Positions 9,624 through 63,120 are shown, counted from the stretch's first letter. The stretch: DNA of 64,000 nt from Prevotella sp. (GCA_017415455.1 JAFQGS010000118.1:9739-73738); one strand, 5' to 3'. The notes: generated from the letters alone by a model not told the origin. Translations and numbers: made by a program.

Positions 9624-9689
9624 ATGATGCCTTATTGCGTCATGGATGATGCCTGAACGGAGGCTGGTTGATGCTCTTTCAGAAAACAT
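9624..9689. repeat. 22-bp-register tandem repeat, 3 units
   Basis: [AT]TGATGC[CT] anchors at 9624, 9646 and 9668, exactly 22 bp apart. Lies between convergent genes. Confidence 0.6.
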
Positions 9690-9775
9690 ATTGCCATCGG
9701 ATGAATCATGGTCTGGCTAACAGCCTCATCATACTGATGTCACCACCGGTTGTATCACACGTCAGGACATAACAT

Positions 9776-9806
9776 AAAAGGGGGCACCGCATAGTGCCCC
9801 CTTTGT
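9776..9806. terminator. bidirectional intrinsic terminator between convergent ABC transporter and rseP
   Basis: GGGGGCAC-CGCATA-GTGCCCCC hairpin (9780-9801), flanked by AAAA upstream and TTTGT downstream. Confidence 0.7.
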
Positions 9807-9843
9807 CATATAATGTGAGAATGTATCGTCATTCAAGCAGCGC

Positions 9844-11223
9844 TTACATATATCCCAGCCATCTCAGTATGTCGTTAAGATTGGCAACGAGCATCAGAAG
9901 GATGAGGATTGAGAAACCAACATACTCTGCCTTGATGAGGAAATTCTCGCTCGGTTTGCGCCCGGTGACAAGCTCATAGACAAGGAACAGGGCATGACCG
10001 CCGTCAAGTGCGGGTATAGGCAGTATGTTCATGAACGCAAGCATTATGCTGAGGAAGGCTGTCATACGCCAGAACATCATCCAGTCCCATACAGGTGGGA
10101 ACAGGCTTCCTATCGCACCGAAGCCTCCAAGACTCTTGGCACCTTCTGAGGTGAACACATACTTGAGGTCGTCAACATATCCGCGCAACACGTCTATGCC
10201 ATATTTCACACCGGCAGGGAAACTCTCAAAGAATCCGTATTCTATTGTAACCGGCTTGTAATACTCGCCCGCCGTTGACTGCAACACACCGAGTTTCAGC
10301 TCAGGAGTGAGCACCAGCGAGAGGGTATCAACCTTTCCTGTGGCCTTTGAAGACACTGCCACCATAACGTTGCGCACCTTCATACTGTCGGCCTTGGTGC
10401 CTTGTGAGGCGTCAAGGACATCGTGAAGAACGGCCACCTGATTGTCAAACTCGTTCCAGGAATCTACCGGATGACCGTTAAGGGCTACTATCTTGTCGCC
10501 TTTCTTTATGCCGGCAAGAGCGGCAGGGCTGCCCTCCTGAACATCAACAACATCTGCGGGGATGTATGGTCTCACAAAGTTCGGCTGCTCCTTGAGCATC
10601 GTAAGCAGGCTGAGGTCTGACGGCATGGCAAGCGTTACCTTCTTACCGGCACGCAAAACGTCAACAGTCTCGGCGTCAACAATACTGCGATAGAGGTCCA
10701 CATCAAAACGGGTGAAGGCGCCTTCGTTGGTTCCAAGCAGGATATCTCCGTCCTTGAAGCCTATCTCTTTGGCTGAATCGTTGAACTTCATACCCATCGT
10801 CATGTCCTTAACCGGCACATAACTGTCGCCCCAGTGGAAAAGAACCATTGAGTAGATGAACAAAGCCAGGAAGAAGTTCACAAGCACACCGCCAAGTATT
10901 ATGAGAAGACGCTGCCACGCAGGCTTGCTCCTATACTCCCATGGTTGTGCCGGCTGCTTCATCTGCTCGGTATCAAACGACTCGTCTATCATACCCGAGA
11001 TTTTGCAATAACCTCCCAAAGGAAGCCAGCCTACGCCATAAGTTGTCTCGCTGTTCTTAGGCTTGAACTGGAAGATATGAAACCAAGGATCAAAGAAAAG
11101 GAAAAACTTCTCCACACGAACACCAAACAGTTTGGAGAAGAAAAAGTGTCCACCCTCATGAAAAAGCACAAGGATTGAGATTGCAAGCATGAACTGCAGC
11201 AGTCTGATAAGAAATACTTCCAT
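9844..11223 (-). CDS. rseP: RIP metalloprotease RseP (site-2 protease)
   Basis: HEGGHFF zinc motif, central PDZ region, C-terminal NILPIPALDGGH motif. Lies downstream of dxr, as is common. Confidence 0.9.
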   Translation of the reverse strand: MEVFLIRLLQFMLAISILVLFHEGGHFFFSKLFGVRVEKFFLFFDPWFHIFQFKPKNSETTYGVGWLPLGGYCKISGMIDESFDTEQMKQPAQPWEYRSKPAWQRLLIILGGVLVNFFLALFIYSMVLFHWGDSYVPVKDMTMGMKFNDSAKEIGFKDGDILLGTNEGAFTRFDVDLYRSIVDAETVDVLRAGKKVTLAMPSDLSLLTMLKEQPNFVRPYIPADVVDVQEGSPAALAGIKKGDKIVALNGHPVDSWNEFDNQVAVLHDVLDASQGTKADSMKVRNVMVAVSSKATGKVDTLSLVLTPELKLGVLQSTAGEYYKPVTIEYGFFESFPAGVKYGIDVLRGYVDDLKYVFTSEGAKSLGGFGAIGSLFPPVWDWMMFWRMTAFLSIMLAFMNILPIPALDGGHALFLVYELVTGRKPSENFLIKAEYVGFSILILLMLVANLNDILRWLGYM

Positions 11224-11390
11224 TTGTAAAAAAATAGTTTTTATGTCCAGCCGGCAGCATCAGTGTCATCCCACCGGCAATAAGGACGTTAATAAAATTC
11301 TGTTGTTTAAAATATAATCAATAGCCCAACGCTACACAGACACACCCGGCATGACGCCGCACACGGGTATGACCTGATGGAAAAAGGGCA

Positions 11391-12551
11391 TCAAAGCATA
11401 TCCATTGCGACACGTCTCGCCTCTGCGTCTGTGGCTACATAGGTGTCGTATGAGGGATTAGCGTCGAAGGAAACCAGATGCATCGTCTTCTCTATGATAT
11501 CACTCATCTCAAGGAATCCACACTTCCCTTCAAGGAATCCCTTGTTAACCACCTCGTTGGCAGCGTTGACAATACATGGCATATTGCCTCCCTTGCGTAT
11601 CGACTCGTATGCAAGGGCAAGGCAACGGAACTTCTCAAAGTCGGGTTTAAAGAACTCAAGGGGTTGCTTGAAGAGGTCAAGGCGCTCGCTTCCGAGACTC
11701 AAACGCTGCGGGAAAGAGAACGCGTACTGGATAGGAAGACGCATATCGGGAACTCCTAACTGAGCTTTCACGGCGCCATCGCAGAACTGTACGGCGCTAT
11801 GTACTATCGACTGAGGATGCACAAGCACTTCTATCTGCTCGGCGTCAAGGCCAAAAAGCCATCGCGCTTCTATCACCTCAAAGCCTTTGTTCATCATTGT
11901 TGCGCTGTCGATAGTGATTTTTGCGCCCATATTCCATGTGGGATGACGAAGCGCATCCTCACAGGTCACTGCCGAGAGCTGCTCCTTTGTGAATGTGCGG
12001 AAGGGTCCGCCAGATGCCGTAAGGAGAATCTTCTCTATCTTGTTGTCGCCCTCGCCCACTATACTTTGGAATATAGCGGAGTGCTCACTGTCCACCGGAA
12101 GTATAGGAGAATGGCATTCTGCAGCAAGGCGGCAGACAAGTTCTCCGGCAACAACGAGCGTCTCCTTGTTGGCAAGGCATATCTTCTTATGCGCACGGAT
12201 GGCATGAAGCGTGGGACTAAGTCCGGCAAATCCCACCATAGCCGTAAGCACAATATCGATAGGGTCGGCCTGAACAATCTCATCAATGGCCTTCATTCCG
12301 GCATATACTTTTATATCAGGCATGTCAGCAAGCATGCTCTTAAGCGTGTCATACAGCGACTCATTGGCAATCACTACGGCTGCGGGCTTGAAGCGACGGG
12401 CCTGCTCTGCCAGTTCTGTTACACGGTTGTTGGCTGTAAGACAATATACCTCATACAAGTCGGGATATGCCTCCACTACTTGCAAAGCCTGTGTTCCTAT
12501 GGAGCCCGTAGAGCCCAATATGGCTATCTGCTGTCTCTTTTTCATAATCAT
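11391..12551 (-). CDS. dxr: 1-deoxy-D-xylulose 5-phosphate reductoisomerase
   Basis: ILGSTGSIGTQAL NADPH-binding N-terminus; 386 aa. Its ATG overlaps the rimM stop (ATGA at 12549-12553). Confidence 0.95.
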   Translation of the reverse strand: MIMKKRQQIAILGSTGSIGTQALQVVEAYPDLYEVYCLTANNRVTELAEQARRFKPAAVVIANESLYDTLKSMLADMPDIKVYAGMKAIDEIVQADPIDIVLTAMVGFAGLSPTLHAIRAHKKICLANKETLVVAGELVCRLAAECHSPILPVDSEHSAIFQSIVGEGDNKIEKILLTASGGPFRTFTKEQLSAVTCEDALRHPTWNMGAKITIDSATMMNKGFEVIEARWLFGLDAEQIEVLVHPQSIVHSAVQFCDGAVKAQLGVPDMRLPIQYAFSFPQRLSLGSERLDLFKQPLEFFKPDFEKFRCLALAYESIRKGGNMPCIVNAANEVVNKGFLEGKCGFLEMSDIIEKTMHLVSFDANPSYDTYVATDAEARRVAMDML

Positions 12552-13081
12552 CAGTTGTCCAAATCAAGCAGACCTTCCGGCAATTCCACCGTTATCTGCT
12601 TTGCATTGGCATCCACCCCGGTGATGAATTCCGGTGCGGCTGGAATCAATATGATGTCGCCATCATCGGTTCTCACCTCAAAAAGAATGTTCACCGTTGA
12701 CTCATCCACCGACACAATGGTGCCAATTACCTTATTATATATATCTACATCAACAATACTGAATCCGATAATCTCTGCCCAACTGAGGTCGCCGTCAGTA
12801 CTGTCCGACATCGCTCTGGGGAAGAACACCTCGCTGCCTGTAAGCTGTGAGGCTCTCTCCTTTGTGTCAATGTCGCTGAATTTAACCAAAGCTGTCTCTC
12901 CGCTCTTAAACCTGTACTCATCCATAAAGAACGGAACCAGAATGCCATCAATCTGCAATATGAGGTATTCTGCATCCACACGGTCGAACACATCATCATC
13001 AAACATGAATGATAACTCGCCATTTACACCATGCGGTTTACCTATCTTGCCAATCTTATAGACTTCTTCCTGTCTTATCAT
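12551..13081 (-). CDS. rimM: ribosome maturation factor RimM
   Basis: GKIGKPHGVNGEL motif and a PRC-barrel C-terminus; 176 aa. Confidence 0.88.
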   Translation of the reverse strand: MIRQEEVYKIGKIGKPHGVNGELSFMFDDDVFDRVDAEYLILQIDGILVPFFMDEYRFKSGETALVKFSDIDTKERASQLTGSEVFFPRAMSDSTDGDLSWAEIIGFSIVDVDIYNKVIGTIVSVDESTVNILFEVRTDDGDIILIPAAPEFITGVDANAKQITVELPEGLLDLDN

Positions 13082-13204
13082 CAGTATGCTTTTGATATTT
13101 GTTTTTATTATTTCCCGGCATCGGTTACAAGTTAAACGTCATGCAACAGATACCAATACATCATGCAATCTATACTTAAACACATCGCAATTGATGCTCT
13201 TTCG

Positions 13205-13270
13205 TCATGCGTTTCATGCTCAACCATCATGCGTTTCATGCTCAACCGTCATGCGGCTGATGCCAACACA
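13205..13270. repeat. 22-bp tandem repeat, 3 units (TCATGCGTTTCATGCTCAACCR)
   Basis: TCATGCG at 13205, 13227 and 13249. The first two units differ at a single base. Lies between murA and rimM. Confidence 0.85.
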
Positions 13271-13306
13271 CAACGCTGCTCATTCCGCAACGCACCGCAG
13301 GAGATG

Positions 13307-14617: not shown

Positions 14618-14636
14618 TCTCTTGTTATTTATGTGT

Positions 14637-15233: not shown

Positions 15234-15311
15234 ATCTTGTTTTTCTGCTTTTTCCTATTGCTTTGTTATTTCCCTGTTTGCTTGTCGTCCGACCTCGCTT
15301 TATCGTTTTTC

Positions 15312-18289: not shown

Positions 18290-18373
18290 CCCTGTTCTGA
18301 CTGCCACGGCACCGTATGTCCATCAGTCTGAGACCATACAGAAGACAACACATCACGGAAGGTTCGCCGAAAA

Positions 18374-18449
18374 GGCATCTTTCGGATTACAACAAGGCAT
18401 CAAATACAGCCCGGAAAGGCATCAAACACAACACGTTTGATGCCTTTCC
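18374..18449. repeat. 22-bp tandem repeat, 3 units (GGCATC... type); last unit forms a hairpin
   Basis: GGCATC at 18374, 18396 and 18418. An inverted partial copy, GTTTGATGCCTTTCC, lies at 18435-18449. Confidence 0.75.
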
Positions 18450-18456
18450 GCTTTTT
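18413..18456 (+). terminator. intrinsic terminator after nadD
   Basis: 15-bp perfect stem GGAAAGGCATCAAAC / GTTTGATGCCTTTCC, then GCTTTTT. Confidence 0.65.
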
Positions 18457-20980: not shown

Positions 20981-21153
20981 AAGGTACGAGGAAGCACCAA
21001 CCGCATCCCGCTACTTTATTCTTACCACATCGCCAGACGCCCCGTCTTACTGCGTTTAATGTGCAGGCATCTTCCGAGGGGCTGACGTTCTCTGGGCAAT
21101 TAATAGCAAGACATTATACTATATACCTGCTGTCACCCTTCACATTATATATT

Positions 21154-21270
21154 TATTGAGCGTAACCTATATGTTTTTATAACGTAACCTATATACTTAT
21201 TGAACGTAACTTATATACTTATTGAGCACAACCTATATGTTTACAGAGCGTAACTTATATGTTTATAAGA
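21154..21270. repeat. 22-bp tandem repeat, 5 units (AT-rich, ...CGTAACCTATATRYTTATTGA...)
   Basis: CGTAAC/CACAAC anchors at 21161, 21183, 21205, 21227 and 21249, all exactly 22 bp apart. Confidence 0.88.
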
Positions 21271-21278
21271 CATGCCCC

Positions 21279-23242: not shown

Positions 23243-23297
23243 AGACAAATTGCGGCTTATTCCAAACCACATCACGCCAAAATAACAGTTACGGTGC

Positions 23298-23389
23298 GAA
23301 AGGGCATCAAACGGAGGCTGAGAGGGCATTGAATGGAAGACAAAAGGGCATTGAACGGAGGCTGAAAGGGCATTGAACGGAAGATATTT
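23298..23389. repeat. 22-bp tandem repeat, 4 units (AGGGCAT[CT][AG]AA[CT]GGA[GA]G...)
   Basis: GGGCAT at 23302, 23324, 23346 and 23368. Lies between the divergent GH51 and GH43 genes. Confidence 0.88.
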
Positions 23390-23570
23390 TATAACATCTT
23401 GATGTTCAAATAGTTACAAGCACCAAAGACAACAACCGCACTCTCCTGTTCAGGATACAGACTTTCTTGGCACAAGAGACTAAAGACAAGAAAGCGGCTT
23501 CTGGTTATGCTTTTGAAAGAAAATACACCTAATATCATAGTTTTTTCACCTTTTCCTGAACAATAAAGAA

Positions 23571-28529: not shown

Positions 28530-28643
28530 AAGCACCGCTCTTCAAGAACGGTTGAGCAATTGCCACGCCGGGAATCATAGCACTTCCAGAACCCATTGAT
28601 TTCCAAACAGTTAACAACTGAGGCGAAGATGTTTTCCAAAAGA

Positions 28644-28731
28644 GCATTAAACGCAGCGTATTCGGGCATGAAACACAGTGTATTCAGGCATGAAACACAG
28701 TGTATTCGGGCATTAAACGAGAAACACCTGA
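28644..28731. repeat. 22-bp tandem repeat, 4 units (GCAT[GT]AAAC[AG]CAG[CT]GTATTC[AG]G)
   Basis: GCAT at 28644, 28666, 28688 and 28710. Ends about 65 bp upstream of the helicase-nuclease gene. Confidence 0.88.
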
Positions 28732-28794
28732 GAACCTGCCGCAAGGAGACGGCAGGTTGAAGAACACGAAAGAAGAAAAAACACACTCTACAAC

Positions 28795-34117: not shown

Positions 34118-34180
34118 CAAAAAAAAAGGGATTCCGCTGAATCCCAATCTGTTAACCTTAAATCTAATACTATGAAAAAC
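34118..34180 (-). ncRNA. candidate small RNA (orphan promoter plus intrinsic terminator)
   Basis: A minus-strand TACCTTTG box lies at 34187-34194. About 45 nt downstream is the hairpin GGGATTC-AGCG-GAATCCC (34128-34145), followed by nine U (34119-34127). No ATG and no ORF in between. Confidence 0.3.
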
Positions 34181-34501
34181 ACGATGCAAAGGTAATGCTT
34201 TTTCTAAAACCTGCAAGCATTAATGCATAAATATTTATTCTTTTGTATATATTATTGATATATATCAATTAGAAAAAGATGTAACATTCTGATTATCACC
34301 CTTTATCAACACGTATCTACACATGTTGCAATGTGTATAAAAATACAGCAAGGACAATGGCTGACTATATAAAACATCATAACAACACCTGTATTCCGAC
34401 AGCCTCCGATGGCGTCTGCCATGGTAATAAATAATGAGATGAAGAGCAGTGGAAGGTATCCATACAATTAAAAAGTATGCCGTTTACGGGTGAGAAACAA
34501 T

Positions 34502-34876
34502 ATACTTTTGATGGCTGAATGGCATACTTTTACCTCATAAGTCATATACTTTTATCAACCCACTCTGCCATCTCATAGTTATGGTCCTGCCATTACATAA
34601 CCATGGCACAATGATTACATTGAGATGGCGGCAGCATTACATAGCCACGGCAGCACGATGGCATTGTAATGGCAGCACGATGGCATAGTAACGGCACTGC
34701 GATAAAATAGCGATGATGGGTACGATTAAATAGCGATGATGCGGCAATGAGACAGCGATGGCACTGCGATAAAATAGCAATGGCAAGGTGATTAAACAGT
34801 TATGGCGAGGTGATTAAACAGCTATGGCGAGGTGATTAAACAGCTATCATGACATCATAGCATAGTGATGACACGG
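34502..34876. repeat. 22-bp-register minisatellite, about 17 units with a gradient of unit types
   Basis: ATACTTTT at 34502/34524/34546; ATTACAT at 34592/34614/34636; ACGATGG at 34655/34677; GCGATAAAATAGC at 34699 and 34766; GTGATTAAACAG at 34788/34810/34832. Confidence 0.88.
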
Positions 34877-34890
34877 GGATATCAGGGCAT

Positions 34891-34932
34891 AAAACAAAAA
34901 ATGCCGGTAAGTTGTTGTATTCTTACCGGCAT
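34891..34932 (-). terminator. intrinsic terminator after dsbD
   Basis: ATGCCGGTAAG/CTTACCGGCAT hairpin. On the minus strand it is followed by TTTTTGTTTT. Confidence 0.65.
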
Positions 34933-34948
34933 TTTGATTAATATGTCT

Positions 34949-44993: not shown

Positions 44994-45120
44994 ATTAATT
45001 TCTGATTTTTAAACGTTTCGGAAAAAGACATAAAAATATGTTGTGACACGAGAAGGCACAACATCATTATTATAAGTATCAAACAATTACAATCAAGCGG
45101 TATATCGTCCATATCGACTG

Positions 45121-45128
45121 CAAAGATA
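45121..45128 (-). promoter_or_regulatory. -7 promoter box (TATCTTTG), CNNM-PPIase operon
   Basis: TAnnTTTG-CA on the minus strand, about 128 nt upstream of the ATG at 44993. Confidence 0.4.
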
Positions 45129-45369
45129 TAAAAATAGCTTCTTATTATAAAAATAAAAGACGGTTAATTTATTCAAAACGTCATTTTCCTGCGTTTTACT
45201 TCACTTTTCCGCCATTTCCCGACGCATTTTCCGTCCCAAAGCATCACATACGGCAAGCAAACCTGTTCAGAACATTTTATGCCAAAACAGATGATTTTGC
45301 GCCCATTGCCACCTGTCGCCGTCTTTCATATTGTCACTATTTTCATCCTTTTACTGACATTCTGCTCTC

Positions 45370-45830
45370 CGGAAAAGCACTGCGTTTTTCGCTGAAAAAG
45401 AAAATCCCGCCGTCCGAAAGATGCCCTTTCGCATGAGTGGCAGACAGACAAGGGCAGTTTATCTGCATGTTAACAATCCCAAAAGAGCATCAAACGGTAC
45501 AGAAAGGCGTGTGTGGCTGTGCGTTTTCTGTGATTCTCAACACCTCGGAAAAGTGATTTCTCATGACTTGCGGACAGAAAAACGGCAGTCATAACATATA
45601 AATCCATGCGTCATCGCATTGATATGGCGGTGCCATCGCTATGCCATGGTGTCAGCATCTCAACTCCATCATGCCATCATGGCTATCCCATCCTGCTGCC
45701 ATGGCTATTTAATCGCAGCACCATGACAACGCCATCATACCGCCACGACAAAGCGATGCTGACACCATGGCATAGCAATCATGGCACCATAGCATAGAAA
45801 TCATGGTATCATAACACAGGAACGACCCTG
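45370..45830. repeat. 22-bp-register degenerate minisatellite (C[CT]GAAA-type units, then CCATGG-type units)
   Basis: CGGAAAAG/CTGAAAAAG/CCGAAAG at 45370/45392/45414. CCATGG/CCATGA/CCACGA/CCATGG/CCATAG at 45699/45721/45743/45765/45787. The units are reverse complements of those at 34.7 and 62.96 kb. Confidence 0.82.
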
Positions 45831-46226
45831 TGAAGAGTATTTTATATATAAAACAACAGACTGATTGTCAACACATTACAAACCAAAACAACACTCATCT
45901 TCCATATTCACGTTGTCGGCAGCAAACAGCACTCATATCCACACGTCTGCCCTGTGCTTAGGTGACGACGACAGGAAAATGGTGTCTGAGGATTGTGTTT
46001 TCTGAGCCGGCGTGCGAGTTTTTTCATTTCGCCGCAAGTATTCCGCACTCTCAGGAAACCAATTTGTCAGTGAAAAGCCGCTTTTGCTGACATTTTGATT
46101 TTACGCACCTGGCAAGGGCCTCCTGCGGGCTCATTTTACGGACTTTCTGCACAATATTCAGCATGACGAATCAGTCACAGGAATAAATTTCGCTTGCGAA
46201 ACTTTAGTTATTATAAATAAAAGCAG

Positions 46227-46234
46227 TAACTTTG
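46227..46234 (+). promoter_or_regulatory. -7 promoter box (TAACTTTG), argS
   Basis: TAnnTTTG-CA, 43 nt upstream of the argS ATG. Confidence 0.5.
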
Positions 46235-46276
46235 CAAGCCAAATAAGACTAATAATAAACAAGGTACAAAAAAGCA

Positions 46277-48100
46277 ATGAATATTGAAGGCAAAATAGTA
46301 TGCTCGGCAATGGCTGCCGTAAAGGAGCTTTACGGACAGGAGGTGGCTGAGAAGATGGTGCAGCTGCAGAAGACAAAGCGCGAGTTTGAGGGCAGCCTCA
46401 CACTGGTGGTGTTCCCATTCTTGAAGATTTCAAAGAAAAGTCCTGAGCAGACAGCGCAGGAGATAGGCGAATATCTGCTGCAGAACTGCGACGCTGTGGC
46501 TTCGTTCAACGTTGTCAAGGGTTTTCTCAATCTCGTAATCGCCGACTCTGCTTGGGTGGAACTGCTCAAGGCCATCGACGCAGACGAGAAGTTCGGCGAG
46601 AAGGCGGCGACAGAGGACAGTCCGCTGGTGATGATAGAGTATTCTTCTCCAAACACCAACAAACCGCTGCACCTGGGTCACGTGCGCAACAACCTGCTTG
46701 GCTGGTCGCTGGCACAGATAATGGCAGCCAACGGCAACAAGGTGGTGAAGACAAACATCGTGAACGACCGAGGCATACACATCTGCAAGTCTATGCTGGC
46801 ATGGCTGAAGTATGGCAACGGCGAGACTCCTGAGTCATCGGGCAAGAAGGGCGACCACCTGATTGGCGACTACTACGTGGCTTTCGACAAGCACTACCGT
46901 GAGGAGGTGAAGGAACTTACGGCACAGTATGTTGCCGGGGGCATGGACGTAGAGGCTGCCGAGAAGAAGGCAAAGGAGGAGGCTCCGCTGATAAAGGAGG
47001 CTCACGACATGCTCGTGAAATGGGAGCAGAACGACCCTGAGGTGCGCTCACTGTGGAAGAAGATGAACGACTGGGTGTATGCAGGCTTTGACGAGACATA
47101 CGCAAAAATGGGCGTGGGCTTTGACAAGATATACTACGAGAGCGACACTTACCTGCGCGGAAAAGCGAAGGTGGAGGAAGGACTGGAGAAGGGTCTCTTT
47201 GAGCGTCACGATGACAACAGCGTGTGGGCAGACCTCACCAACGAGGGACTCGACCAGAAACTGCTGCTCAGAAGCGACGGCACAAGCGTGTATATGACAC
47301 AGGACATCGGTACTGCGGAGATGCGTTTCAAGGATTTCCCTATCGACAAGATGATATACGTGGTGGGCAACGAGCAGAACTACCACTTCCAGGTGCTCTC
47401 CATATTGCTCGACCGCCTTGGCTTCAAGTGGGGCAAGGAGCTTGTTCACTTCTCTTACGGAATGGTGGAGCTGCCAAACGGAAAGATGAAGAGCCGCGAG
47501 GGAACGGTGGTTGACGCCGACGACCTGATGGAGCTGATGGTGGCTGATGCCAAGCGTACAAGCGAGGAGGCTGGCAAATTTGACGACATGACAGAAGAGG
47601 AGCGCAACGAGATAGCACGCATCGTGGGCATGGGAGCACTGAAATACTTCATCCTGAAGGTTGACGCTCGCAAGAACATGCTCTTCAATCCGGAGGAGTC
47701 TATCGACTTCAACGGAAACACCGGTCCGTTCATCCAGTACACTCACGCACGCATCCGCTCTATCCTGCGCAAGGCAGAAGTGGAGTTAGGAATTAGGAAT
47801 TATGAATTAGGAATTAGGAGTACTAACAACTTGTCAACTAAAGAGACCGAACTCATTCAGAAGATGAACGGCTATGCAGATGTTGTGGCACAGGCAGGAA
47901 AGGACTACAGTCCGAGCGGCATTGCCAACTACTGCTATGAGCTGACCAAAGAGTTCAACCAGTTCTATCACGACTACAGCATACTGAAAGAGGAGGACGA
48001 GCAGATACGTATGTTCCGCCTGGTGCTGGCAAAGAACGTGGCAAAGATACTGAGGAACGGTATGGCGCTACTCGGAATAGAGGTGCCGGAAAGAATGTAA
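46277..48100 (+). CDS. argS: arginine--tRNA ligase
   Basis: SSPNTNKPLHLGHVRN (HIGH-type motif), KMKSREG (KMSK-like) and a C-terminal DALR anticodon-binding region; 607 aa. Confidence 0.95.
   Translation: MNIEGKIVCSAMAAVKELYGQEVAEKMVQLQKTKREFEGSLTLVVFPFLKISKKSPEQTAQEIGEYLLQNCDAVASFNVVKGFLNLVIADSAWVELLKAIDADEKFGEKAATEDSPLVMIEYSSPNTNKPLHLGHVRNNLLGWSLAQIMAANGNKVVKTNIVNDRGIHICKSMLAWLKYGNGETPESSGKKGDHLIGDYYVAFDKHYREEVKELTAQYVAGGMDVEAAEKKAKEEAPLIKEAHDMLVKWEQNDPEVRSLWKKMNDWVYAGFDETYAKMGVGFDKIYYESDTYLRGKAKVEEGLEKGLFERHDDNSVWADLTNEGLDQKLLLRSDGTSVYMTQDIGTAEMRFKDFPIDKMIYVVGNEQNYHFQVLSILLDRLGFKWGKELVHFSYGMVELPNGKMKSREGTVVDADDLMELMVADAKRTSEEAGKFDDMTEEERNEIARIVGMGALKYFILKVDARKNMLFNPEESIDFNGNTGPFIQYTHARIRSILRKAEVELGIRNYELGIRSTNNLSTKETELIQKMNGYADVVAQAGKDYSPSGIANYCYELTKEFNQFYHDYSILKEEDEQIRMFRLVLAKNVAKILRNGMALLGIEVPERM
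47784..47818 (+). repeat. heptanucleotide tandem repeat (AATTAGG-like x5) inside argS coding sequence
   Basis: AGTTAGG AATTAGG AATTATG AATTAGG AATTAGG, translated in frame as ELGIRNYELGIRS. Confidence 0.85.
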
Positions 48101-48235: not shown

Positions 48236-48895
48236 ATGAAATTCTACGTCATCTGGAACGGAGAGAACGCCGGGATATACACATCATGGGCTGAATGCGA
48301 GCAACTGATAAAAGGTGCCAAGGGCATACTGTATAAGTCGTTCAAGACGGAGGAGGAGGCAAAGACCGCCTTCGGCAACGACCCGTATATGTACATCAAA
48401 AAGAACGAGGGAGGCAGAGCGGGAAGGAAAGCGGAAGTGACGGATGTGCCGTCATGGCGCAATGACACCGTACTCCCGCTGCATCCTGACGTGAAGGCAA
48501 ACGCATGGGCTGTGGACGCGGCATGCAGCGGAAATCCCGGCCCTATGGAATACAGAGGTGTAGACCTTGCCACCGGAGCAGAGATATTCCACTTCGGACC
48601 TCAGCTGGGAACAAACAACATAGGCGAGTTTCTTGCAATTGTGCATGCGCTGGCGCTGATGGAAAAGAACAATATCACCGACAGGGTGATATACAGCGAC
48701 AGCCGCAACGCACTGCTCTGGGTAAGGAATATGCAGTGCAAGACAAAGCTCGCACGCACCGAGAAGACAGACTCTCTGTTCAACATCATTGAACGGGCAG
48801 AAAACTGGCTGAAGACTCACTCATTCAGAGTACCAATATATAAATGGGAGACAAAGAAATGGGGAGAGGTGCCGGCTGATTTCGGAAGGAAATAA
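48236..48895 (+). CDS. ribonuclease H family protein with N-terminal RNase H1/viroplasmin-type duplex-binding domain
   Basis: N-terminal KFYVIWNGENAGIYTSWAECEQLIKG...YKSFKTEEEAKTAF. C-terminal RNase HI core (GNPGPMEYRG, NNIGEFLAIVHAL, IYSDS). Confidence 0.86.
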   Translation: MKFYVIWNGENAGIYTSWAECEQLIKGAKGILYKSFKTEEEAKTAFGNDPYMYIKKNEGGRAGRKAEVTDVPSWRNDTVLPLHPDVKANAWAVDAACSGNPGPMEYRGVDLATGAEIFHFGPQLGTNNIGEFLAIVHALALMEKNNITDRVIYSDSRNALLWVRNMQCKTKLARTEKTDSLFNIIERAENWLKTHSFRVPIYKWETKKWGEVPADFGRK

Positions 48896-48948
48896 ACAGA
48901 ACGCCAAAAGGAAATAACAATTTACTAAGGTTATACTGGAGTAGCGAC

Positions 48949-49500
48949 ATGACAGAATTTGAGAAGATGCGCAGCGGAGAGATGTACAGATTTTCTGACG
49001 CGGAAGTGCTCGCCAGCGTACAGCATGCCACCGCTTTGTGCATAAAAATGCAGACAATGGGTGTTGAAGATAGCGAATACAGACAGACGATAGAGGAACT
49101 TATTCCGGGAATTCCAAAGAGCAGCACAGTATGTCCGCCGTTCCACTGCGACCACGGACACGGCATAAAGATTGGGGAGAACACATTCCTGAACTACAAC
49201 TGCACCATGCTTGACGGAGGGCTGATTACCATTGGCAACAACGTGAAGATAGGACCAAACTGCCAGTTTTACACACCGCAGCATCCTTTTGACTACGAGG
49301 AACGACGCAAGCCTATAGAACGGGCATTGCCGATAAGTGTGGGCAACGACACATGGCTGGGAGGTGGTGTAGTGGTTTGCCCTGGCGTGAAGATAGGAAA
49401 CAGATGCATAATAGGAGCAGGAAGCGTGGTGGTGCACGACATTCCTGATGACTGCATGGCGGCAGGGAACCCTGCTGTCGTAAAGAAAAGACTAAGATAA
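48949..49500 (+). CDS. sugar O-acetyltransferase (maltose/galactoside acetyltransferase family)
   Basis: Maa-type N-terminus MRSGEMY and left-handed beta-helix hexapeptide repeats (IGENTFLNYNCTMLD, IGNNVKIGPN, VGNDTWLGGGVVV). Confidence 0.85.
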   Translation: MTEFEKMRSGEMYRFSDAEVLASVQHATALCIKMQTMGVEDSEYRQTIEELIPGIPKSSTVCPPFHCDHGHGIKIGENTFLNYNCTMLDGGLITIGNNVKIGPNCQFYTPQHPFDYEERRKPIERALPISVGNDTWLGGGVVVCPGVKIGNRCIIGAGSVVVHDIPDDCMAAGNPAVVKKRLR

Positions 49501-49523
49501 CAGAGAACCGAGCATAATACCTT

Positions 49524-49994
49524 ATGACAAGAAAAGCGTTACTATTCGTTTGCCTCGGCAATATATGCCGCTCTCCCGCAGCGGAAAGCGTCATGAAAAG
49601 CATGACCGAGGGCAACGACAACTATATTATAGACTCAGCAGCCATAGGACCTTGGCATGTGGGAGAGCTGCCAGACAGCAGAATGCGCAGGCTGGGGACA
49701 CGGAGAGGATACAAATTTGAAAGCAGGGCGAGACAGGTGGAGAGGGCTGACTTCAACCACTATGATTATATCATTGCCATGGACAATGACAACATTAAAG
49801 CCCTTAACGCCCTGGCACGGAACGACAGTGACAGGGAGAAGATAATATGCCTGGCGTCTTTTCTTACCAAACACCCCGGCTTCTCTACTATCCCCGACCC
49901 GTATTATGGCGGCGAGAAGGATTTTGAACTGGCCCTTGACCTCATTGAGGATGCCTGTGAGGGTCTGAAAGTATGGCTGGAGGAGATGGGATAG
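49524..49994 (+). CDS. low molecular weight protein-tyrosine phosphatase
   Basis: CX5R(S/T) P-loop LFVCLGNICRSPAAE and a DPYYG Asp loop. Confidence 0.9.
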   Translation: MTRKALLFVCLGNICRSPAAESVMKSMTEGNDNYIIDSAAIGPWHVGELPDSRMRRLGTRRGYKFESRARQVERADFNHYDYIIAMDNDNIKALNALARNDSDREKIICLASFLTKHPGFSTIPDPYYGGEKDFELALDLIEDACEGLKVWLEEMG

Positions 49995-50082
49995 CAGACA
50001 GCACACGCATCTGTCTTTTGTCTCCGGCATCACTGCATGCAGAAAGACCGCCAGCAAGAATGTTCTATAACACACAATAAGA

Positions 50083-52011
50083 ATGTCTCACATACCGACA
50101 TCTGTCCAGAGTCTCATGCAGCAAAGGATATTGCTTGAGATTGAGTATAACTGCGAGAAAGAGTTGTTCCGCAGGCAGACGGAGCTTGTCGGCATACAGA
50201 AGAAGGTGAAAAGAGGAGACGCGTGGTTTCCTATACGCACCGGGAAAAGCTACTACAACTCACTGAACCAACTGGCAGTGGAGATATTCCAGACTTCGGA
50301 CAGCGACATTGAGCATAACTTTGAGTATAACCGCCCGGTATGCTTTTTCACCATTCACAACGGCAGCATCAAATATCTAAGCATCAACGGAACGGTAAGC
50401 TACGCAGAGAGCAACCGCATGGTAGTGACGGTTCCGGACAACAACTCCATAGGCGAACTGCAACGTTCTGAGCACATAGGGGTGCAGCTGTTCTTTGACG
50501 AGACAAGCTATCGCATGATGTTCGAGGCGTTGGACCGCACAATAAATGCGAAAAACAACAGACTGGCTTATCTGAGAGATCTCTTCTACTCGCAGCAGAA
50601 GGCACAGACTTTTACATTCGCGGCCATCCGCTTCCCATGGCTTAACAGTACCCAGGAGCAGGCAGTGAACAACGTCTTAAGGAGCAAAGACGTGGCTATA
50701 GTACACGGCCCGCCAGGAACAGGCAAGACAACGACTCTTGTGGAGGCTATATACGAGACGCTGCACCGGGAGAGCCAGGTGCTTGTATGCGCACAGAGCA
50801 ATATGGCGGTAGACTGGATAAGCGAGAAACTTGTGGACAGAGGCATCAACGTTCTGAGAATAGGAAATCCGTCGCGAGTGAACGAGAAGATGCTCTCATT
50901 TACGTATGAGCGGAGATTTGAGAACCATCCCGACTATCCTCTTCTATGGACTATAAGAAAGACAATAAGGGAAATGCGGCAAAACCGCAGCAAGCGCAGC
51001 ACAGAGAATTACCACCAGAAGATTGAGCGGCTGAAGAGCAGAGCCACCGAAATAGAGATTCGCATAAATGCTGAGCTGTTTGGTGAGGCACGTGTCATAG
51101 CATGCACACTGGTAGGAGCGGCAAGCAGAGTCCTTAGCGGTATGAAATTTGCCACACTCTTCATTGATGAGGCGGCACAGGCTCTTGAGGCAGCCTGCTG
51201 GATTCCAATACGCAAAGTGTCAAGAGTTGTATTGGCTGGAGACCATTGCCAGCTGCCACCGACGGTGAAAAGCATAGCTGCCGCAAAGGGCGGACTCGCA
51301 AAAACACTGATGGAACGTCTGACGGAGAACAAGCCTGAGGCTGTGAGCCTGCTGAAGGTGCAATACCGCATGAACGACAGCATAATGAGATTCTCAAGTG
51401 AGTGGTTCTACAACGGAGAGCTGGAGAGCGCGCCAATAACCAAACACAGGGGAATACTTGACTATGACTCGCCCATTGACTGGATTGACACCTCACAGAT
51501 GGCCATCGAGAAAGAGAACTGTGAGGAGGAAGGACAAAACATACACTTCCGCGAGCAATTTGTCGGAGAGAACTTTGGACGCATAAACAAAGACGAGGCA
51601 CAGCTCACACTGGATACCTTACTGGCATATTTCAATAAAATAGGAAAGGAACGGGTACTGAGCGAGAGGATTGACATAGGCATCATATCGCCATATCGCG
51701 CACAGGTGCAATACCTGCGGCAGAGGATACGCAAGAAGGATGTATTCAAGCCATACAGGCATTTGATAACCGTGAATACCATTGACGGCTTTCAGGGACA
51801 GGAGCGAGACATCATACTGATATCTATGGTACGCGCAAATGAGGACGGACAGATAGGTTTCCTGAAAGACCTCAGACGAATGAACGTGGCAATGACACGG
51901 GCAAGAATGAAACTTATAATATTGGGTGACGCGCCTACCCTTACCAAACATCCGTTTTATAAAAAGCTGCTTGGATATATAAAGGAGACAAAGGAAAGGG
52001 AATTTTATTAA
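50083..52011 (+). CDS. Upf1/IGHMBP2-like SF1 helicase (AAA_11/AAA_12 type)
   Basis: VHGPPGTGKTTT, FIDEAAQ, LAGDHCQLPPTV, YRMNDSI, TIDGFQGQERDIILIS and MNVAMTRARMKLIILGD motifs. Confidence 0.87.
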   Translation: MSHIPTSVQSLMQQRILLEIEYNCEKELFRRQTELVGIQKKVKRGDAWFPIRTGKSYYNSLNQLAVEIFQTSDSDIEHNFEYNRPVCFFTIHNGSIKYLSINGTVSYAESNRMVVTVPDNNSIGELQRSEHIGVQLFFDETSYRMMFEALDRTINAKNNRLAYLRDLFYSQQKAQTFTFAAIRFPWLNSTQEQAVNNVLRSKDVAIVHGPPGTGKTTTLVEAIYETLHRESQVLVCAQSNMAVDWISEKLVDRGINVLRIGNPSRVNEKMLSFTYERRFENHPDYPLLWTIRKTIREMRQNRSKRSTENYHQKIERLKSRATEIEIRINAELFGEARVIACTLVGAASRVLSGMKFATLFIDEAAQALEAACWIPIRKVSRVVLAGDHCQLPPTVKSIAAAKGGLAKTLMERLTENKPEAVSLLKVQYRMNDSIMRFSSEWFYNGELESAPITKHRGILDYDSPIDWIDTSQMAIEKENCEEEGQNIHFREQFVGENFGRINKDEAQLTLDTLLAYFNKIGKERVLSERIDIGIISPYRAQVQYLRQRIRKKDVFKPYRHLITVNTIDGFQGQERDIILISMVRANEDGQIGFLKDLRRMNVAMTRARMKLIILGDAPTLTKHPFYKKLLGYIKETKEREFY

Positions 52012-56777: not shown

Positions 56778-56808
56778 ACAAGTAACATTTATATAATAGA
56801 AAAATACC

Positions 56809-56846: not shown

Positions 56847-56859
56847 TATAAAATATTAT

Positions 56860-56867: not shown

Positions 56868-56904
56868 TAACCAGTTAAACACATTATATATAAAAGTAAT
56901 ACCT

Positions 56905-57591: not shown

Positions 57592-57799
57592 CATCCATCA
57601 CTTCCCCTTTACACAAAATCGCTTGGATGTTCCGACAACACATCGTTAGCGTCAGGAAATACCAAAGACGTCACACAATGTGCTACAATACACAAAGAGA
57701 GTGTAAAATAAACTGCGGCATGCTACCCAACAATGAGCAATACCATGTTTGTTTTACACTCCCTTGCAAACTGCTGATTGCAGTTATACCATTCCGCCC

Positions 57800-58636: not shown

Positions 58637-58637
58637 G

Positions 58638-59339: not shown

Positions 59340-59364
59340 TTAATATTTCACTTCCTGTATGCCA

Positions 59365-61494
59365 CTACTTGTTTCGTGATAATTTCTCCTTAAACCACTT
59401 CGACAATATCGCATACGCACTGTCCACATTATGTTTCTGCGGTGCCGTGAACGTCATGCTCTCCATAGGCTGTCCGTTCTGGTCAGGGAACACAATGATA
59501 AGGTTTCTGTTTGCGAAGTACCTGCCTATCTCCTCCGGCAACCTCTCAAACGCCGTCTTATACGACACCGTTCCTGTTCGCGCGGTGATTACCACCAGCA
59601 GATGGTCTTCCTTTATCTCATCCGACAATGCGGTAATCTCCTTCCAATGCTGCATCAGTATGTAATCAGCACGCACACTCGGGTGCCTGTTTTGTATATA
59701 CTCCCTTATCAGCGACATCGACTCCGTGCGGCCATGAAACTGTATCCTGCATCCCATGTTCTCCGACATCACCGACAAGCGCTCTATCCACCTGTAGAAA
59801 CCAGGCTCAAACTCCACTCTCGACGGCACCGCCACCTGTATGCGTCGTATCGTGCTCAGTGGCTGCAGCAGCCTGCACACCATAATCTGCCTGTTCAGCT
59901 CCGTAAACAGATTTTCCGTAAAGACGCCCCAGAAGTTGTCATTCTCCGTCTTCTTCTCATGCATACCGATGATAATCTCCGATGCGTCATATTCCTTAAA
60001 GGCATGCATTATGCCGTTTGCTATGTTTGCTGCTATGCGGCTCTGCGTAAGCATCCTCACGTCGGCGGCACTTGCTGCCTTTGCCGCTGCCTCCAGAATG
60101 CGTTTCCCCTGTGCTTGGTTTCGCACCACGTCCTTGTCATCGAGCACCACGTTCAGACCAATTATTCCTCTGTTCAGCTTGCTGTTGCGCATCATTATAG
60201 CCAGAGGCACCAGATTGTCCACGCCCGTCTGCCGCTTTATTGGTATAAGAATCTTCTCGTCGTCGGCCGTATGCTCATCCTCGGCATACATGTTGTCGTC
60301 CAGCACTATCTGCTGCGAGGCATGCTCAGTGACGAAAGATGATATCACACACGTGAAGAGTATCATCATCACCACACCGTTCAGCATGTCCGAGTCCACA
60401 AGATACTGCCCGTTGCCTATATACAGCTTCATACCCACCATCACAATGGCGATACTTCCTGCGGCATGTGCCGATGTCAGTCCGAACATCATATTTCCAT
60501 GCGCCATCGGCATCTTCATGCCAAACGACGCTATATATGCGGCTATCATCTTTGCTATTGTTCCGAAGAACACCATGCAGAAGACGATATAAACCGTATG
60601 CCATCCGCCGAACAGCACGCGTATGTCTATCAGCATGCCCACGCCTATAAGGAAATAGGGAATGAAGAGGGCGTTGCCCGTAAACTCTATACGGCTCATC
60701 AATGGAGACACATGCGGTATGTAGCGGTTAAGCACCAATCCGGCGAAGAATGCCCCGAACACTCCCTCCAGACCCATCATCTCGGTGAGGGCCGCGCTGA
60801 GGAAGAGCACCGACAGCACAAAGACAAACTGCATCACGGCATCCGAGTAGTGCTGCAGGAACCATCGCGCCACGCGCGGAATGATAATACTCATACCGCA
60901 GCAATATCCTATAAGCTTTGCCGCCATGAGCAGCCAGAACCACACATCCGCCTCACTGCTCACCGAGCCTACCACACCCGAGAAGGCTATCAGCGCAAAG
61001 AGCAGTGATATCATCGACGAACCCACGCACAGCGTCACCACCGGGTGCTTCTGAAGTCCGTACTTGCATACTATGGGATAGGCAATGAGCGTGTTGGATG
61101 CCAGGATACACGACAGCAGCAGCGATGCCTGCATGGAGTAGTCCATGAGATAAATGCCGGCATAATACACCATCACGAATGGTATGGCGAAGGTCATCAG
61201 TCCGAAGAGCAGCATGCGCCGCGAGTTCTTCTTGATACCCTCCATGTCCATCTCCAGTCCGGCAAGGAACATTATATAGTAGAGTCCCACCTTGCCGAAC
61301 ATCTCAAACGAGGCGTCGCGCTCAAGGATATTAAGCCCGTACTGACCCACTATCACACCCGCAAGCACCATTCCCACGATATGAGGAATGCGCAGCTTGC
61401 TCATTATCACCGGTGCGGACAGGATGATAAAAAGCACAACAAGAAATATCCAAGTGGTATCCGTTATCGGGAAATATTGTGATATGTCAGGCAT
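59365..61494 (-). CDS. cation:proton antiporter (CPA family) with large cytoplasmic C-terminal domain
   Basis: About 400 aa of multi-TM Na+/H+-exchanger-like sequence (VGMVLAGVIVGQYGLN...), followed by about 300 aa of soluble regulatory-type domain. Confidence 0.85.
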   Translation of the reverse strand: MPDISQYFPITDTTWIFLVVLFIILSAPVIMSKLRIPHIVGMVLAGVIVGQYGLNILERDASFEMFGKVGLYYIMFLAGLEMDMEGIKKNSRRMLLFGLMTFAIPFVMVYYAGIYLMDYSMQASLLLSCILASNTLIAYPIVCKYGLQKHPVVTLCVGSSMISLLFALIAFSGVVGSVSSEADVWFWLLMAAKLIGYCCGMSIIIPRVARWFLQHYSDAVMQFVFVLSVLFLSAALTEMMGLEGVFGAFFAGLVLNRYIPHVSPLMSRIEFTGNALFIPYFLIGVGMLIDIRVLFGGWHTVYIVFCMVFFGTIAKMIAAYIASFGMKMPMAHGNMMFGLTSAHAAGSIAIVMVGMKLYIGNGQYLVDSDMLNGVVMMILFTCVISSFVTEHASQQIVLDDNMYAEDEHTADDEKILIPIKRQTGVDNLVPLAIMMRNSKLNRGIIGLNVVLDDKDVVRNQAQGKRILEAAAKAASAADVRMLTQSRIAANIANGIMHAFKEYDASEIIIGMHEKKTENDNFWGVFTENLFTELNRQIMVCRLLQPLSTIRRIQVAVPSRVEFEPGFYRWIERLSVMSENMGCRIQFHGRTESMSLIREYIQNRHPSVRADYILMQHWKEITALSDEIKEDHLLVVITARTGTVSYKTAFERLPEEIGRYFANRNLIIVFPDQNGQPMESMTFTAPQKHNVDSAYAILSKWFKEKLSRNK

Positions 61495-61631
61495 ATGGCG
61501 TTATGTCTTTTGCGTTATCATGGTATCATGATTTCATACAGATTGACAGCAACAAGTTGACTTATGCTATCAATTATCATGCAAAATTGCAAAAAAAATA
61601 TCAATTTTGCGATAAATAACATGAAAAGTTG

Positions 61632-61639
61632 TAATTTTG
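61632..61639 (+). promoter_or_regulatory. -7 promoter box (TAATTTTG), asd
   Basis: TAnnTTTG-CA, 38 nt upstream of the asd ATG. Confidence 0.5.
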
Positions 61640-61676
61640 CACCCCAAAATAATGTTTAATTATAAAAATAATAAGG

Positions 61677-62687
61677 ATGAAAGTAGCAATTGTTGGTGCC
61701 AGTGGCGCCGTTGGACAAGAGTTTCTTAGGGTTTTGGAGGAAAGAAATTTCCCTATGGACGAGTTGGTATTATTTGGTTCTGAGCGCTCTGCCGGAAAGA
61801 AATATACCTTTAAGGGAAAGGAATATGAGGTAAAACTGTTGCAGCACAACGACGACTTTAAAGACATCGACATTGCGTTCACATCTGCCGGTGCAGGCAT
61901 CTCAAAGGAATATTGCGAGGACATCACAAAATACGGAGCCGTGATGATTGACAACTCAAGTGCCTTCAGAATGGACGACGACGTGCCATTGGTGGTGCCT
62001 GAGTGCAACGCTGCCGACGCTCTCAACCGTCCACGCGGCATCATCGCCAATCCTAACTGCACCACCATCATGATGGTTGTGGCGCTACAGCCACTCGAGG
62101 AACTGAGCCACATCAAGAGAATACACGTGGCAAGCTACCAGAGTGCCAGCGGCGCGGGTGCTGCGGCAATGGCAGAACTGCAGCAGCAGTATTCTGAGAT
62201 TATCAACAACGAGCCTGTGACAGTGAAGAAATTCCCTCATCAGCTGGCATACAACGTGATACCACAGATTGACGTCTTCCAGCCTAACGGATACACCAAG
62301 GAGGAGATGAAGATGTTCAACGAGACAAAGAAAATCATGCACAGCGACGTGAAGTGCTCTGCAATGTGCGTGCGTGTGTCTTCGCTCCGTGCCCACTCTG
62401 AGTCGGTATGGATTGAGACAGAGCGCCCTATCAGCGTGGAGGAGGCACAGAAGGCTCTGGCGGCTGCGCCTGGCGTAACACTGAAGGACGACCCGGCAAA
62501 CCTCGTTTACCCTATGCCGCTGGAGACTGCAGGCAAGGACGATATCTACGTGGGACGTGTACGCAAGGACATTGCCGACGAGAACGGACTGACTTTCTGG
62601 CTCAGCGGCGACCAGATTCGCAAGGGTGCGGCGCTCAATGCCGTGCAGATAGCAGAATATCTGGTAAAGGTTGGCAACGTGAAATAA
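61677..62687 (+). CDS. asd: aspartate-semialdehyde dehydrogenase
   Basis: [16 protein letters not shown]-binding motif and IANPNCTTI active-site Cys motif; 336 aa. Confidence 0.95.
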
Positions 62688-62727
62688 CAGGCTTACGGCG
62701 CAGATGCGCCTGACAGCGACATAACAG

Positions 62728-62775
62728 GAGAGGAGGATGAACACCGCAAGCGGTTGTCATCCTCCTCTTGTTTTG
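62728..62775 (+). terminator. intrinsic terminator after asd
   Basis: GAGAGGAGGATGA ... TCATCCTCCTCT stem with an inner CACCGC/GCGGTT helix, followed by TGTTTT. Confidence 0.6.
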
Positions 62776-62854
62776 GTCTGCCCTGTCAGACGTCTCACGC
62801 ATGCAGAGCCACGGCTTACCGCCCATATCCTCATCATCCCACCTCCATGACGAC

Positions 62855-63120
62855 ACCATGGCATAGCCATCGCCGCATCATCGCATAAGGATGGCGGTAG
62901 GATGGCTATGTCATCATGCTATGATGGCTATGTAACCATGGTGCGATTACGTTGTAATCGTGGTGCGATAAAATAGCCATCGCACCGCCACCGCATATGC
63001 AATCGCACCATCAGCTCATATGCAACGGTGATGCGATGGCATAGGAATGACAGGGCGATGGCATAGGAATGACAGGGTGATGACATAGGAATGACGAGGT
63101 GATGACATAGGAGCGGATAA
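62855..63120. repeat. 22-bp-register minisatellite, about 12 units
   Basis: GTGCGAT at 62941/62963. GCGATGG/GTGATGA at 63033/63055/63077/63099, where two units are identical (GCGATGGCATAGGAATGACAGG). Lies between convergent asd and tonB. Confidence 0.88.

Follow-up and report, generated by a model that had tools for sequence, protein, structure and literature searches.

Tandem-repeat arrays with a 22-bp register were found in nine intergenic gaps of a 64,000-nucleotide chromosome segment (hereafter, the window) of an uncultured ruminant-gut (rumen) Prevotella sp. (GCA_017415455.1, JAFQGS010000118.1:9739-73738), a species known solely from metagenome assemblies. The arrays, which had been described in an earlier inspection of the window (the original prediction), are real, reproducible, and polymorphic. 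The 22-bp period is a property of the Prevotellaceae as a whole, a point missed by the original prediction, and the unit sequences that carry it are mostly unrelated. We favor, with about even confidence, the view that the arrays are dispersed, largely neutral non-coding minisatellites (variable-number tandem repeats, VNTRs) with a lineage-specific 22-bp register. Prevotella ranks among the most abundant genera in the guts of humans and animals, and, to our knowledge, its non-coding DNA is almost unstudied; no relevant description of Prevotella minisatellites or 22-bp repeats was found in the literature.

Detection of 22-bp Arrays

The window was compared with itself at lags of 5–59 in a sliding self-match (66-bp window, at least 46 matches required). 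Nine segments were obtained at lag 22 and three at its harmonic, lag 44, while the remaining 53 lags gave none. Thus, the lag-22 peak that had been suggested as a check of the arrays is present within the window, where strong segments occur at lag 22 and its harmonic only. At a looser cut-off (28 of 44 matches), lag 22 gave 12 segments, with weak arrays at 9589–9656 (A9.6) and 18370–18435 (A18.4) now included; lags 18–21, 23, 24, and 26 still gave none, and lag 25 gave one. Tandem Repeats Finder recovered period 22 at seven of the nine places that had been named, at 13203–13255 (A13.2), 21146–21266 (A21.1), 23298–23381 (A23.3), 28644–28718 (A28.6), 34640–34847 (A34), 45666–45813 (A45), and 63033–63112 (A63.0). 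The claim of an exact 22-bp register without spacers is borne out by both methods, and all hand-counted anchors were correctly placed, save the fourth copy of CGTAAC, which at 21227 reads CACAAC. Read in 22-base rows, each array consists of 3 to ~14 imperfect head-to-tail units with no spacers. Together, the arrays sum to ~1.5 kb, or roughly one-fifth of the intergenic DNA surveyed (6.9 kb).

The window has a G+C content of 48.3% and is identical to part of the ENA contig ERZ27256761:k141_255256. NCBI assemblies GCA_017472765.1 and GCA_045594725.1 are of the same species; identity to the nearest other species is 83% for ArgRS and 87% for GlnA. The arrays are confined to nine gaps between Pfam-supported genes, at about one locus per 7 kb, and housekeeping genes, recognized from Pfam matches and from genes called on the matching contigs, lie on either side of every array. 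Intergenic placement in convergent, divergent, and tandem gene contexts, as originally described, therefore stands: arrays occupy four of the eight convergent gaps, two of the eight divergent gaps, and three of the 32 tandem gaps of the window. The excess in convergent gaps (one-sided p ~0.03) was not reproduced among the loci of other Prevotellaceae species.

Whole-Unit Length Variation between Strains

Contigs of 24 independent conspecific assemblies (MEGAHIT, SPAdes, and Logan) were found by exact-protein look-ups. Six of the nine gaps turned out to be length-variable, always by exact multiples of 22 bp. Relative to the window, five alleles (−44, −22, 0, +22, and +88 bp) of the A21.1 gap were present in 17 assemblies, and alleles of −22, 0, and +22 bp of the A28.6 gap were present in 10. 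The A9.6 gap was 22 bp longer in two of 10 assemblies, the A13.2 gap was 22 bp shorter in two of 10, and the A63.0 gap was 22 bp shorter in one of four (GCA_045594725.1). In the A34 gap, two distinct unit indels of −22 bp were seen, one at 34655 and the other at 34801 (eight assemblies). The gaps of A18.4 (16 assemblies), A23.3 (10 assemblies), and A45 (five assemblies) were invariant in length. Each array indel aligned to a whole unit within an array, and all other indels, in array-bearing gaps and array-free control gaps alike, were of 1 bp. Since indels longer than 1 bp are all exact 22-bp multiples inside arrays, the arrays are true VNTRs, and the copy-number variation that had been predicted is confirmed. 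Their recurrence in assemblies made with different assemblers, with whole-unit differences only, shows that they are neither chance occurrences nor assembly artefacts. No assembly lacked an array: neither presence/absence polymorphism nor an empty site was seen among the 4–17 assemblies available per locus, and a look for relatives in which an empty site might be sought gave none closer than 87% in GlnA identity. Gain and loss of whole units between strains is the signature of replication slippage or unequal recombination.

Nucleotide diversity was calculated in two alignments, each made of the window and nine other assemblies (10 sequences). The values were 0.012 and 0.029 for arrays, 0.021 and 0.030 for other intergenic DNA, 0.016 and 0.020 for third codon positions, and 0.002–0.004 for first and second codon positions. 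Array diversity is thus on par with that of other intergenic DNA and third codon positions, indicating that the arrays are not visibly constrained.

Unit Families and Internal Architecture

Units were grouped by profile comparison, with rotation and strand flip allowed, against a column-permutation null. Units of different loci proved to be related beyond chance, so the arrays are not all products of independent slippage, and some loci are inverted relative to others, both as originally proposed. The proposal of one dispersed homologous family did not hold in full, since the units form two subfamilies and an orphan.

Subfamily I comprises A9.6, A13.2, A18.4, A23.3, and A28.6, and has the core GAAAGGGCAT[CT][AG]AAC. 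A position-weight matrix of this subfamily revealed extra solitary units at 45412, 45480, 34880, and 9618, as well as the right arm of a hairpin at 18431; its matches were intergenic, with the exception of two low-scoring coding ones. Two of the solitary units, which were detected both in the matrix scan and by BLAST between gaps, lie at 45412–45431 on the minus strand (CGAAAGGGCATCTTTCGGAC, in hairpin form) and at 45480–45499 on the plus strand (CAAAAGAGCATCAAACGGTA). The AT-rich A21.1 is the orphan and belongs to neither subfamily.

Subfamily II (A34.6, A34.7, A45.6, A45.7, A62.9, and A63.0) has a half-period of 11 bp, and each helical turn has one ATGGCA. The self-match was 38–51% at lag 11, compared with ~15–25% at lags 10 and 12. 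Every subfamily II locus contains oppositely oriented blocks, so that the whole region can be folded as a long imperfect hairpin; compared with shuffled sequences, z scores were −6.4 for 45600–45835 and −4.05 for 62840–63130. Single arrays of the window folded no better than shuffled sequence (z of −1.8 to +2.1). The half-period and the inverted blocks are additional to the features described originally.

A 22-bp Period in Other Prevotellaceae

For comparison, argS loci were taken from 80 further species, Prevotellaceae and relatives (L007–L086, 1.45 Mb), and arrays of at least 2.8 copies were counted in them. There were 18 arrays of period 22, five of period 21, three of period 24, and none of periods 19, 20, 23, or 25; among periods of at least 15 bp that are not divisible by three, period 22 accounted for 18 of 20 arrays. 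Most of the period-22 units bore no relation to one another in sequence. A small palindrome, ~GYAAAAGR-N4-YCTTTTRC, was nevertheless common to twelve arrays from seven species and folded strongly; four of the six arrays of other Prevotellaceae that were folded had z scores of −7 or lower (range, −2.9 to −11). Relatives with 85–87% GlnA identity also had 22-bp arrays beside glnA, and in one of them the units (CTGAAAGGGCACCTCTTGGAAG) looked like subfamily I by eye, at a similarity below the clustering threshold.

A metagenome scan for two AAAAGG-N4-CCTTTT palindromes 0–20 bp apart yielded many Prevotella melaninogenica-like contigs with several period-22 unit families. One of these contigs (L262, QWCR01000007.1) has a number of distinct 22-bp array families within a span of 11 kb (5169–5275, 6752–6856, and 10549–10641; similar observations in L242–L263); among them are AAAAAGGTAGACCTTTTT-type palindromes whose centre alternates in orientation, AAAATAAATATTTATTTTCATG, and AAGCACATATGGTGCTAATGGT. 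Unit number at one site differs between contigs of this kind (L261 and L246). The spacing of the palindromes had a raw peak at 22, and collapsing of redundant loci left eight sites at 22, compared with six at 21 and six at 33, which makes the spacing peak weak support for the period. Unrelated bystander arrays in the metagenome loci also peaked at 22, with 12 distinct units, compared with seven at 21.

Short periods were frequent in the 80-species loci, with about 114–121 arrays of period 7 (3–7 copies, diverse units), 27 of period 9, and 21 of period 8; 7 bp is a second preferred period besides 22. The window itself contains a heptamer array (GGAATTA, 5.4 copies, 47782–47819), which lies in frame in argS at the start of the DALR domain and encodes the peptide ELGIRNYELGIRS. 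Different heptamer arrays occupy the same place of argS in other species (L016, 11479–11577; L020, 11558–11588). These period-7 arrays recall the short tandemly repeated repetitive (STRR) heptamers of cyanobacteria.

Neutral Minisatellites or Phased Binding Sites?

If the arrays are largely neutral minisatellites, whole units would be gained and lost by replication slippage or unequal recombination, and the arrays would represent self-perpetuating structural DNA that was seeded or spread by some dispersal mechanism and is tolerated where it is least harmful, for the most part beyond the ends of genes and away from proximal promoters. Any role would be set by architecture and not by exact sequence, 22 bp corresponding to two 11-bp turns of negatively supercoiled DNA. 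Candidate roles would include 3′-end hairpin modules and sites at which a nucleoid protein or gyrase wraps or bends DNA. In other species, the units are small palindromes.

Several observations weigh against neutrality. The same unit family occurs at several loci per genome, both here and in the Prevotella melaninogenica-like contigs, and no dispersal mechanism was found in the sequences analyzed. The palindromic AAAAGG-N4-CCTTTT unit family spans seven species, between which neutral sites are expected to be saturated. The sharpness of the 22-bp period is not accounted for by neutrality. Mismatches are distributed unevenly over the 22 columns in A13.2 (p = 0.007) and A34.6 (p = 0.019), the remaining arrays having too few units, and this hints at constrained cores. 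Finally, the diversity values come from 10 sequences per alignment, and alignment within repeats is imperfect. Because of three of these points, namely, units shared by several loci, the cross-species palindrome, and the pinned period, readings that invoke a measuring protein or a REP/RAYT-like system have to be kept in view. A protein that measures two helical turns and a REP/RAYT-like propagation system would, taken together, be a minority possibility.

In one such reading, the arrays would be phased binding sites, akin to iterons or BIMEs, for a nucleoid-associated protein, a response-regulator-type protein, or gyrase, with successive units exposed on one face of the helix. The period of 22 bp would be set by the footprint of the protein, with which the units of each species would co-evolve in sequence. 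This reading would explain why the period equals two helical turns, why subfamily II matches itself at 11 bp, why period but not sequence is kept across species, and why the cores of A13.2 and A34.6 are more conserved than their spacers. Dispersal of unit families within genomes and the over-representation of convergent gaps, which are sites of positive-supercoil build-up, are also consistent with it, as are arrays of ATGGCA with 11-bp phasing inside phage replication-initiator genes (two contigs checked, see below), so such arrays can be binding iterons. It is difficult to reconcile, however, with variation at the neutral level within the species, with freely polymorphic unit numbers, and with the presence of three unit types in one genome. 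The neighbors are housekeeping genes, among which there is neither a replication gene nor a regulator in common, the convergent-gap excess is absent from other species, and no candidate protein was identified. We consider phased binding unlikely, and prefer neutral minisatellites.

A more general form of the idea, which we regard as rather doubtful, is a molecular ruler of Prevotellaceae, and perhaps of Bacteroidales more widely: a conserved protein or enzyme with a footprint of exactly 22 bp, by which tandem arrays are made, spread, or bound. If this were true, unit sequence and ruler would co-evolve within each species, in the manner of REP sequences and RAYT or of iterons and their initiator, and the arrays would be a genome-organizing or supercoil-managing system and not junk. 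A period pinned at 22 across species without shared units points to either an unrecognized mutational bias or a DNA-measuring protein new to science. Cultured Prevotella melaninogenica and Leyella stercorea carry arrays of the same kind, so the puzzle of the period can be addressed there, and oral P. melaninogenica would be a good experimental model for 22-bp arrays. In practical terms, the strain-variable lengths provide ready-made strain-typing markers. Such repeats are also known to cause errors in assembly and annotation, and the arrays may act as a lever on the expression of neighboring genes.

Individual Arrays and Their Surroundings

The genes that flank the arrays include those of an ABC transporter, rseP, rimM, murA, nadD, glnA, glycoside hydrolases, phoA, dsbD, argS, and asd. 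Among the subfamily I arrays, A9.6 (9602–9689) has ~4 degenerate units ATGATGCCTGAACGGAGGCTGG and sits between the stop codon of the ABC-transporter gene (9458) and a bidirectional terminator hairpin (9777–9804). A13.2 (13140–13293, minus strand) has ~7 units (CATGCGTTTCATGCTCAACCGT when read on the plus strand) of reversed orientation, and is flanked by murA and rimM, both on the minus strand. A18.4 (18368–18450, plus strand) consists of three GGCATC(A/T)-core units at 22-bp spacing. The left arm of a terminator hairpin with a 16-bp stem (18412–18450) is formed by its final unit. The hairpin is followed by CTTTTT, and two weaker copies of this arm are present 22 and 44 bp upstream. A23.3 (23292–23395, plus strand), with four units GAAAGGGCATTGAACGGAGGCT in alternating a/b variants, occupies the gap from which the arabinofuranosidase and GH43 genes diverge. 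A28.6 (28636–28736, plus strand), with four units GCATGAAACACAGTGTATTCGG, lies between two plus-strand genes, with a hairpin (28733–28758) after it. The orphan, A21.1 (21142–21278), has six AT-rich units TATATGTTTATTGAGCGTAACC with a 44-bp higher order, and adjoins the stop codon of the arabinofuranosidase gene.

The subfamily II arrays are more elaborate in their block structure. A34 (34560–34880) has ~14 units in two blocks (34560–34713 and 34715–34846); ATGGCA recurs in it at 11-bp intervals, and a short block at the left end is inverted. The array is placed between a FopS gene and a terminator (34898–34935). A45 (45612–45820), in the divergent gap upstream of argS, is made of two inverted blocks (45612–45707 and 45708–45817) that can pair as a long imperfect hairpin (45629–45788). 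A62.9 (62845–62990) has nested inverted blocks, and A63.0 (63012–63125, plus strand) has four units CGATGGCATAGGAATGACAGGG with 93% matches.

A further explanation is action at the RNA level. The arrays would be transcribed in 3′ untranslated regions or as separate non-coding RNAs, and through their repeated motifs or hairpins they would make messages more stable, influence termination, or titrate a protein that binds RNA. A9.6 and A21.1 are each situated past a stop codon and ahead of the nearest terminator hairpin, the repeated sequence of A18.4 is that of a left terminator arm, and subfamily I units are co-oriented with transcription in all three tandem-gene contexts. A34 is preceded by a Bacteroidetes-type −7 box, TACTTTTG (34503), at a distance of 57 bp, and is followed by a strong terminator. 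Yet such a box faces the array in only one of the nine gaps, and A34 and A62-63 are each flanked by the terminators of the two convergent genes. Folding of the window arrays no better than shuffles, the lack of any matching Rfam family, and variation at the neutral level also speak against this explanation, which we regard as improbable. The stretch from 34503 to 34935 has a promoter-array-terminator layout of its own, in which the −7 box, the 320-bp array, and the terminator with a 14-bp stem follow one another; judging from this layout, it could specify an unannotated ~400-nt non-coding RNA composed of 22-nt repeats.

The arrays had been held responsible for two unusually long gaps, and they account for them in part only, filling ~320 of 1112 bp at 33.8–34.9 kb and ~220 of 1283 bp at 45.0–46.3 kb. 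The former gap also contains the FopS-family small RNA gene (34118–34182, minus strand; Rfam RF04319, 74.8 bits), with a −7 box, CAAAGGTA, at 34187–34194, and the two large array-free gaps contain tRNA genes. In a cross-species comparison of gaps, the array-bearing ones were not conserved, except for the FopS region, the sole part of them that is conserved in another species (L112, 17599–17700, 84% identity). Rfam searches at gathering and permissive thresholds returned FopS, two tRNAs, and chance matches only, and no family fitted the arrays. Decayed genes were considered as an explanation of the long gaps and rejected, there being no convincing open reading frames in them.

Some features of the window are of separate interest. 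GATC is strongly depleted throughout, with 27 sites outside arrays, compared with ~240 expected from base composition, and GGCC and TCGA are likewise low. The scarcity of these sites suggests restriction-modification avoidance. The idea that the arrays are restriction-site decoys was rejected, since CATG, GCATC, and CCATC are not avoided outside arrays. Just downstream of argS, gene content differs between conspecific strains (L001 and L003, 5021–7824, compared with 48236–52011 of the window): large genes of LRR_5-repeat proteins are present in some strains, and hexapeptide-transferase, low-molecular-weight phosphatase, and helicase genes are present in the window.

Comparison with Known Systems

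The original prediction had likened the arrays to BrickBuilt of Porphyromonas gingivalis, a repeat with spacer-free 23-nt units at ~19 dispersed intergenic loci (Klein et al. 2015, PMC4596501). Unit number in BrickBuilt varies between strains, and some loci form long stem-loops (PMC4596501). The likeness is considerable, in that both repeats occur in the order Bacteroidales, have units of nearly equal length, and are spacer-free, intergenic, and strain-variable. They differ in that the window units are exactly 22 nt and not 23 nt long, and in that several unit families coexist within one Prevotella genome. Kinship was not borne out. The BrickBuilt consensus AGAYCATARTATCCTCTCRTRTG had no match in the window with up to three mismatches, and local alignment of all unit consensuses to it was no better than that of shuffled units. 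All-against-all BLAST of 17 intergenic gaps revealed similarity solely within the repeat units, with no leader or tail of the BrickBuilt type, and the IS5-type terminal inverted repeat GAGACCTTTGCA had four matches with two mismatches, compared with 6.3 expected by chance, none of them near an array.

The arrays might still be the minisatellite cores of old non-autonomous elements, i.e., decayed BrickBuilt-like miniature inverted-repeat transposable elements that have lost their ends. Many BrickBuilt copies likewise have no leader, tail, or terminal inverted repeats, and the inverted blocks of subfamily II fold into long stem-loops as some BrickBuilt loci do (PMC4596501). Related units at several loci would also be expected from such elements. 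Besides the unmatched consensus and terminal inverted repeat, this explanation has to face the absence of shared sequence beyond the units, of presence/absence polymorphism among the 4–17 assemblies per locus, of a transposase in the window, and of matches in plasmid or phage collections. We regard decayed elements as a long shot, and retain neutral minisatellites as the preferred reading. The BrickBuilt copy directly upstream of argS in P. gingivalis, BrickBuilt_5 (991 nt), is the longest one (PMC4596501), and its location could be taken to favor decayed elements. The largest array-bearing gap of the window (44994–46276) is also directly upstream of argS, and 22-bp arrays occur within ~1 kb of argS in L052, L062, L069, L077, L009, and L013. 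Every locus fetched was argS-centered, so the shared proximity may be coincidental.

Iterons, to whose size class the period had been assigned, are direct repeats of 17–22 bp in helical phase, which the 22-bp register and the 11-bp half-period of subfamily II resemble. An iteron function was not substantiated. The arrays are chromosomal, with housekeeping neighbors and no replication gene nearby; they are polymorphic in copy number, not conserved in sequence beyond the neutral level, and unaccompanied by an initiator gene, a DnaA-box cluster, or an AT-rich unwinding element. Array variation at the neutral level argues against tight sequence-specific binding of an initiator. An origin from plasmids or phages was rejected, as the 34.5–34.9 kb array has no BLAST matches in plasmid and phage collections. 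The links to BrickBuilt and to iterons should thus be treated as analogies only. Repeats of ATGGCA with 11-bp phasing that resemble subfamily II are present in more than 120 viral contigs (IMG/VR, L116–L235), while the subfamily I pattern had just four chance single matches in viral contigs. In both contexts checked (L119, 5002–5060; L143, 8110–8230), the phage ATGGCA array is inside a gene for a replication initiator or DnaD-like helicase loader, and in several phage contigs the 11-mer array is directly followed by a short tandem array of 5–7 bp. These phage arrays are probably origins of the lambda-O style that lie within the initiator gene.

The possibility of a CRISPR array was rejected: the units abut without spacers, no CRISPR match exceeded the threshold, and there is no cas gene among the annotated neighbors. 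REP/BIME elements (REPINs) of Enterobacteria and Pseudomonas are closer in their organization, being short species-specific extragenic repeats in regular clusters, often past the 3′ ends of genes, whose architecture is kept while their sequence is lineage-specific. Arrays of other Prevotellaceae share with them palindromic 22-bp units, sometimes with alternating orientation of the centre. The units of the window, in contrast, are not palindromic and are arranged strictly head-to-tail with a single period, and no transposase, RAYT included, was found within the ~74 kb of sequence of the species that was read. With mycobacterial interspersed repetitive units (MIRUs) and other bacterial VNTR minisatellites, the arrays have in common intergenic head-to-tail units and whole-unit variation between strains. 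MIRUs are 46–101 bp long and form one homologous family, whereas here it is the 22-bp period that is constant, across unrelated units in a whole bacterial family. Spacer-free head-to-tail units of 10–100 bp are the general mark of bacterial VNTRs and minisatellites, and the arrays consist of such units. Thus, the 22-bp arrays, apparently undescribed for Prevotella, are in kind known bacterial intergenic minisatellites and not a new category of repeat.

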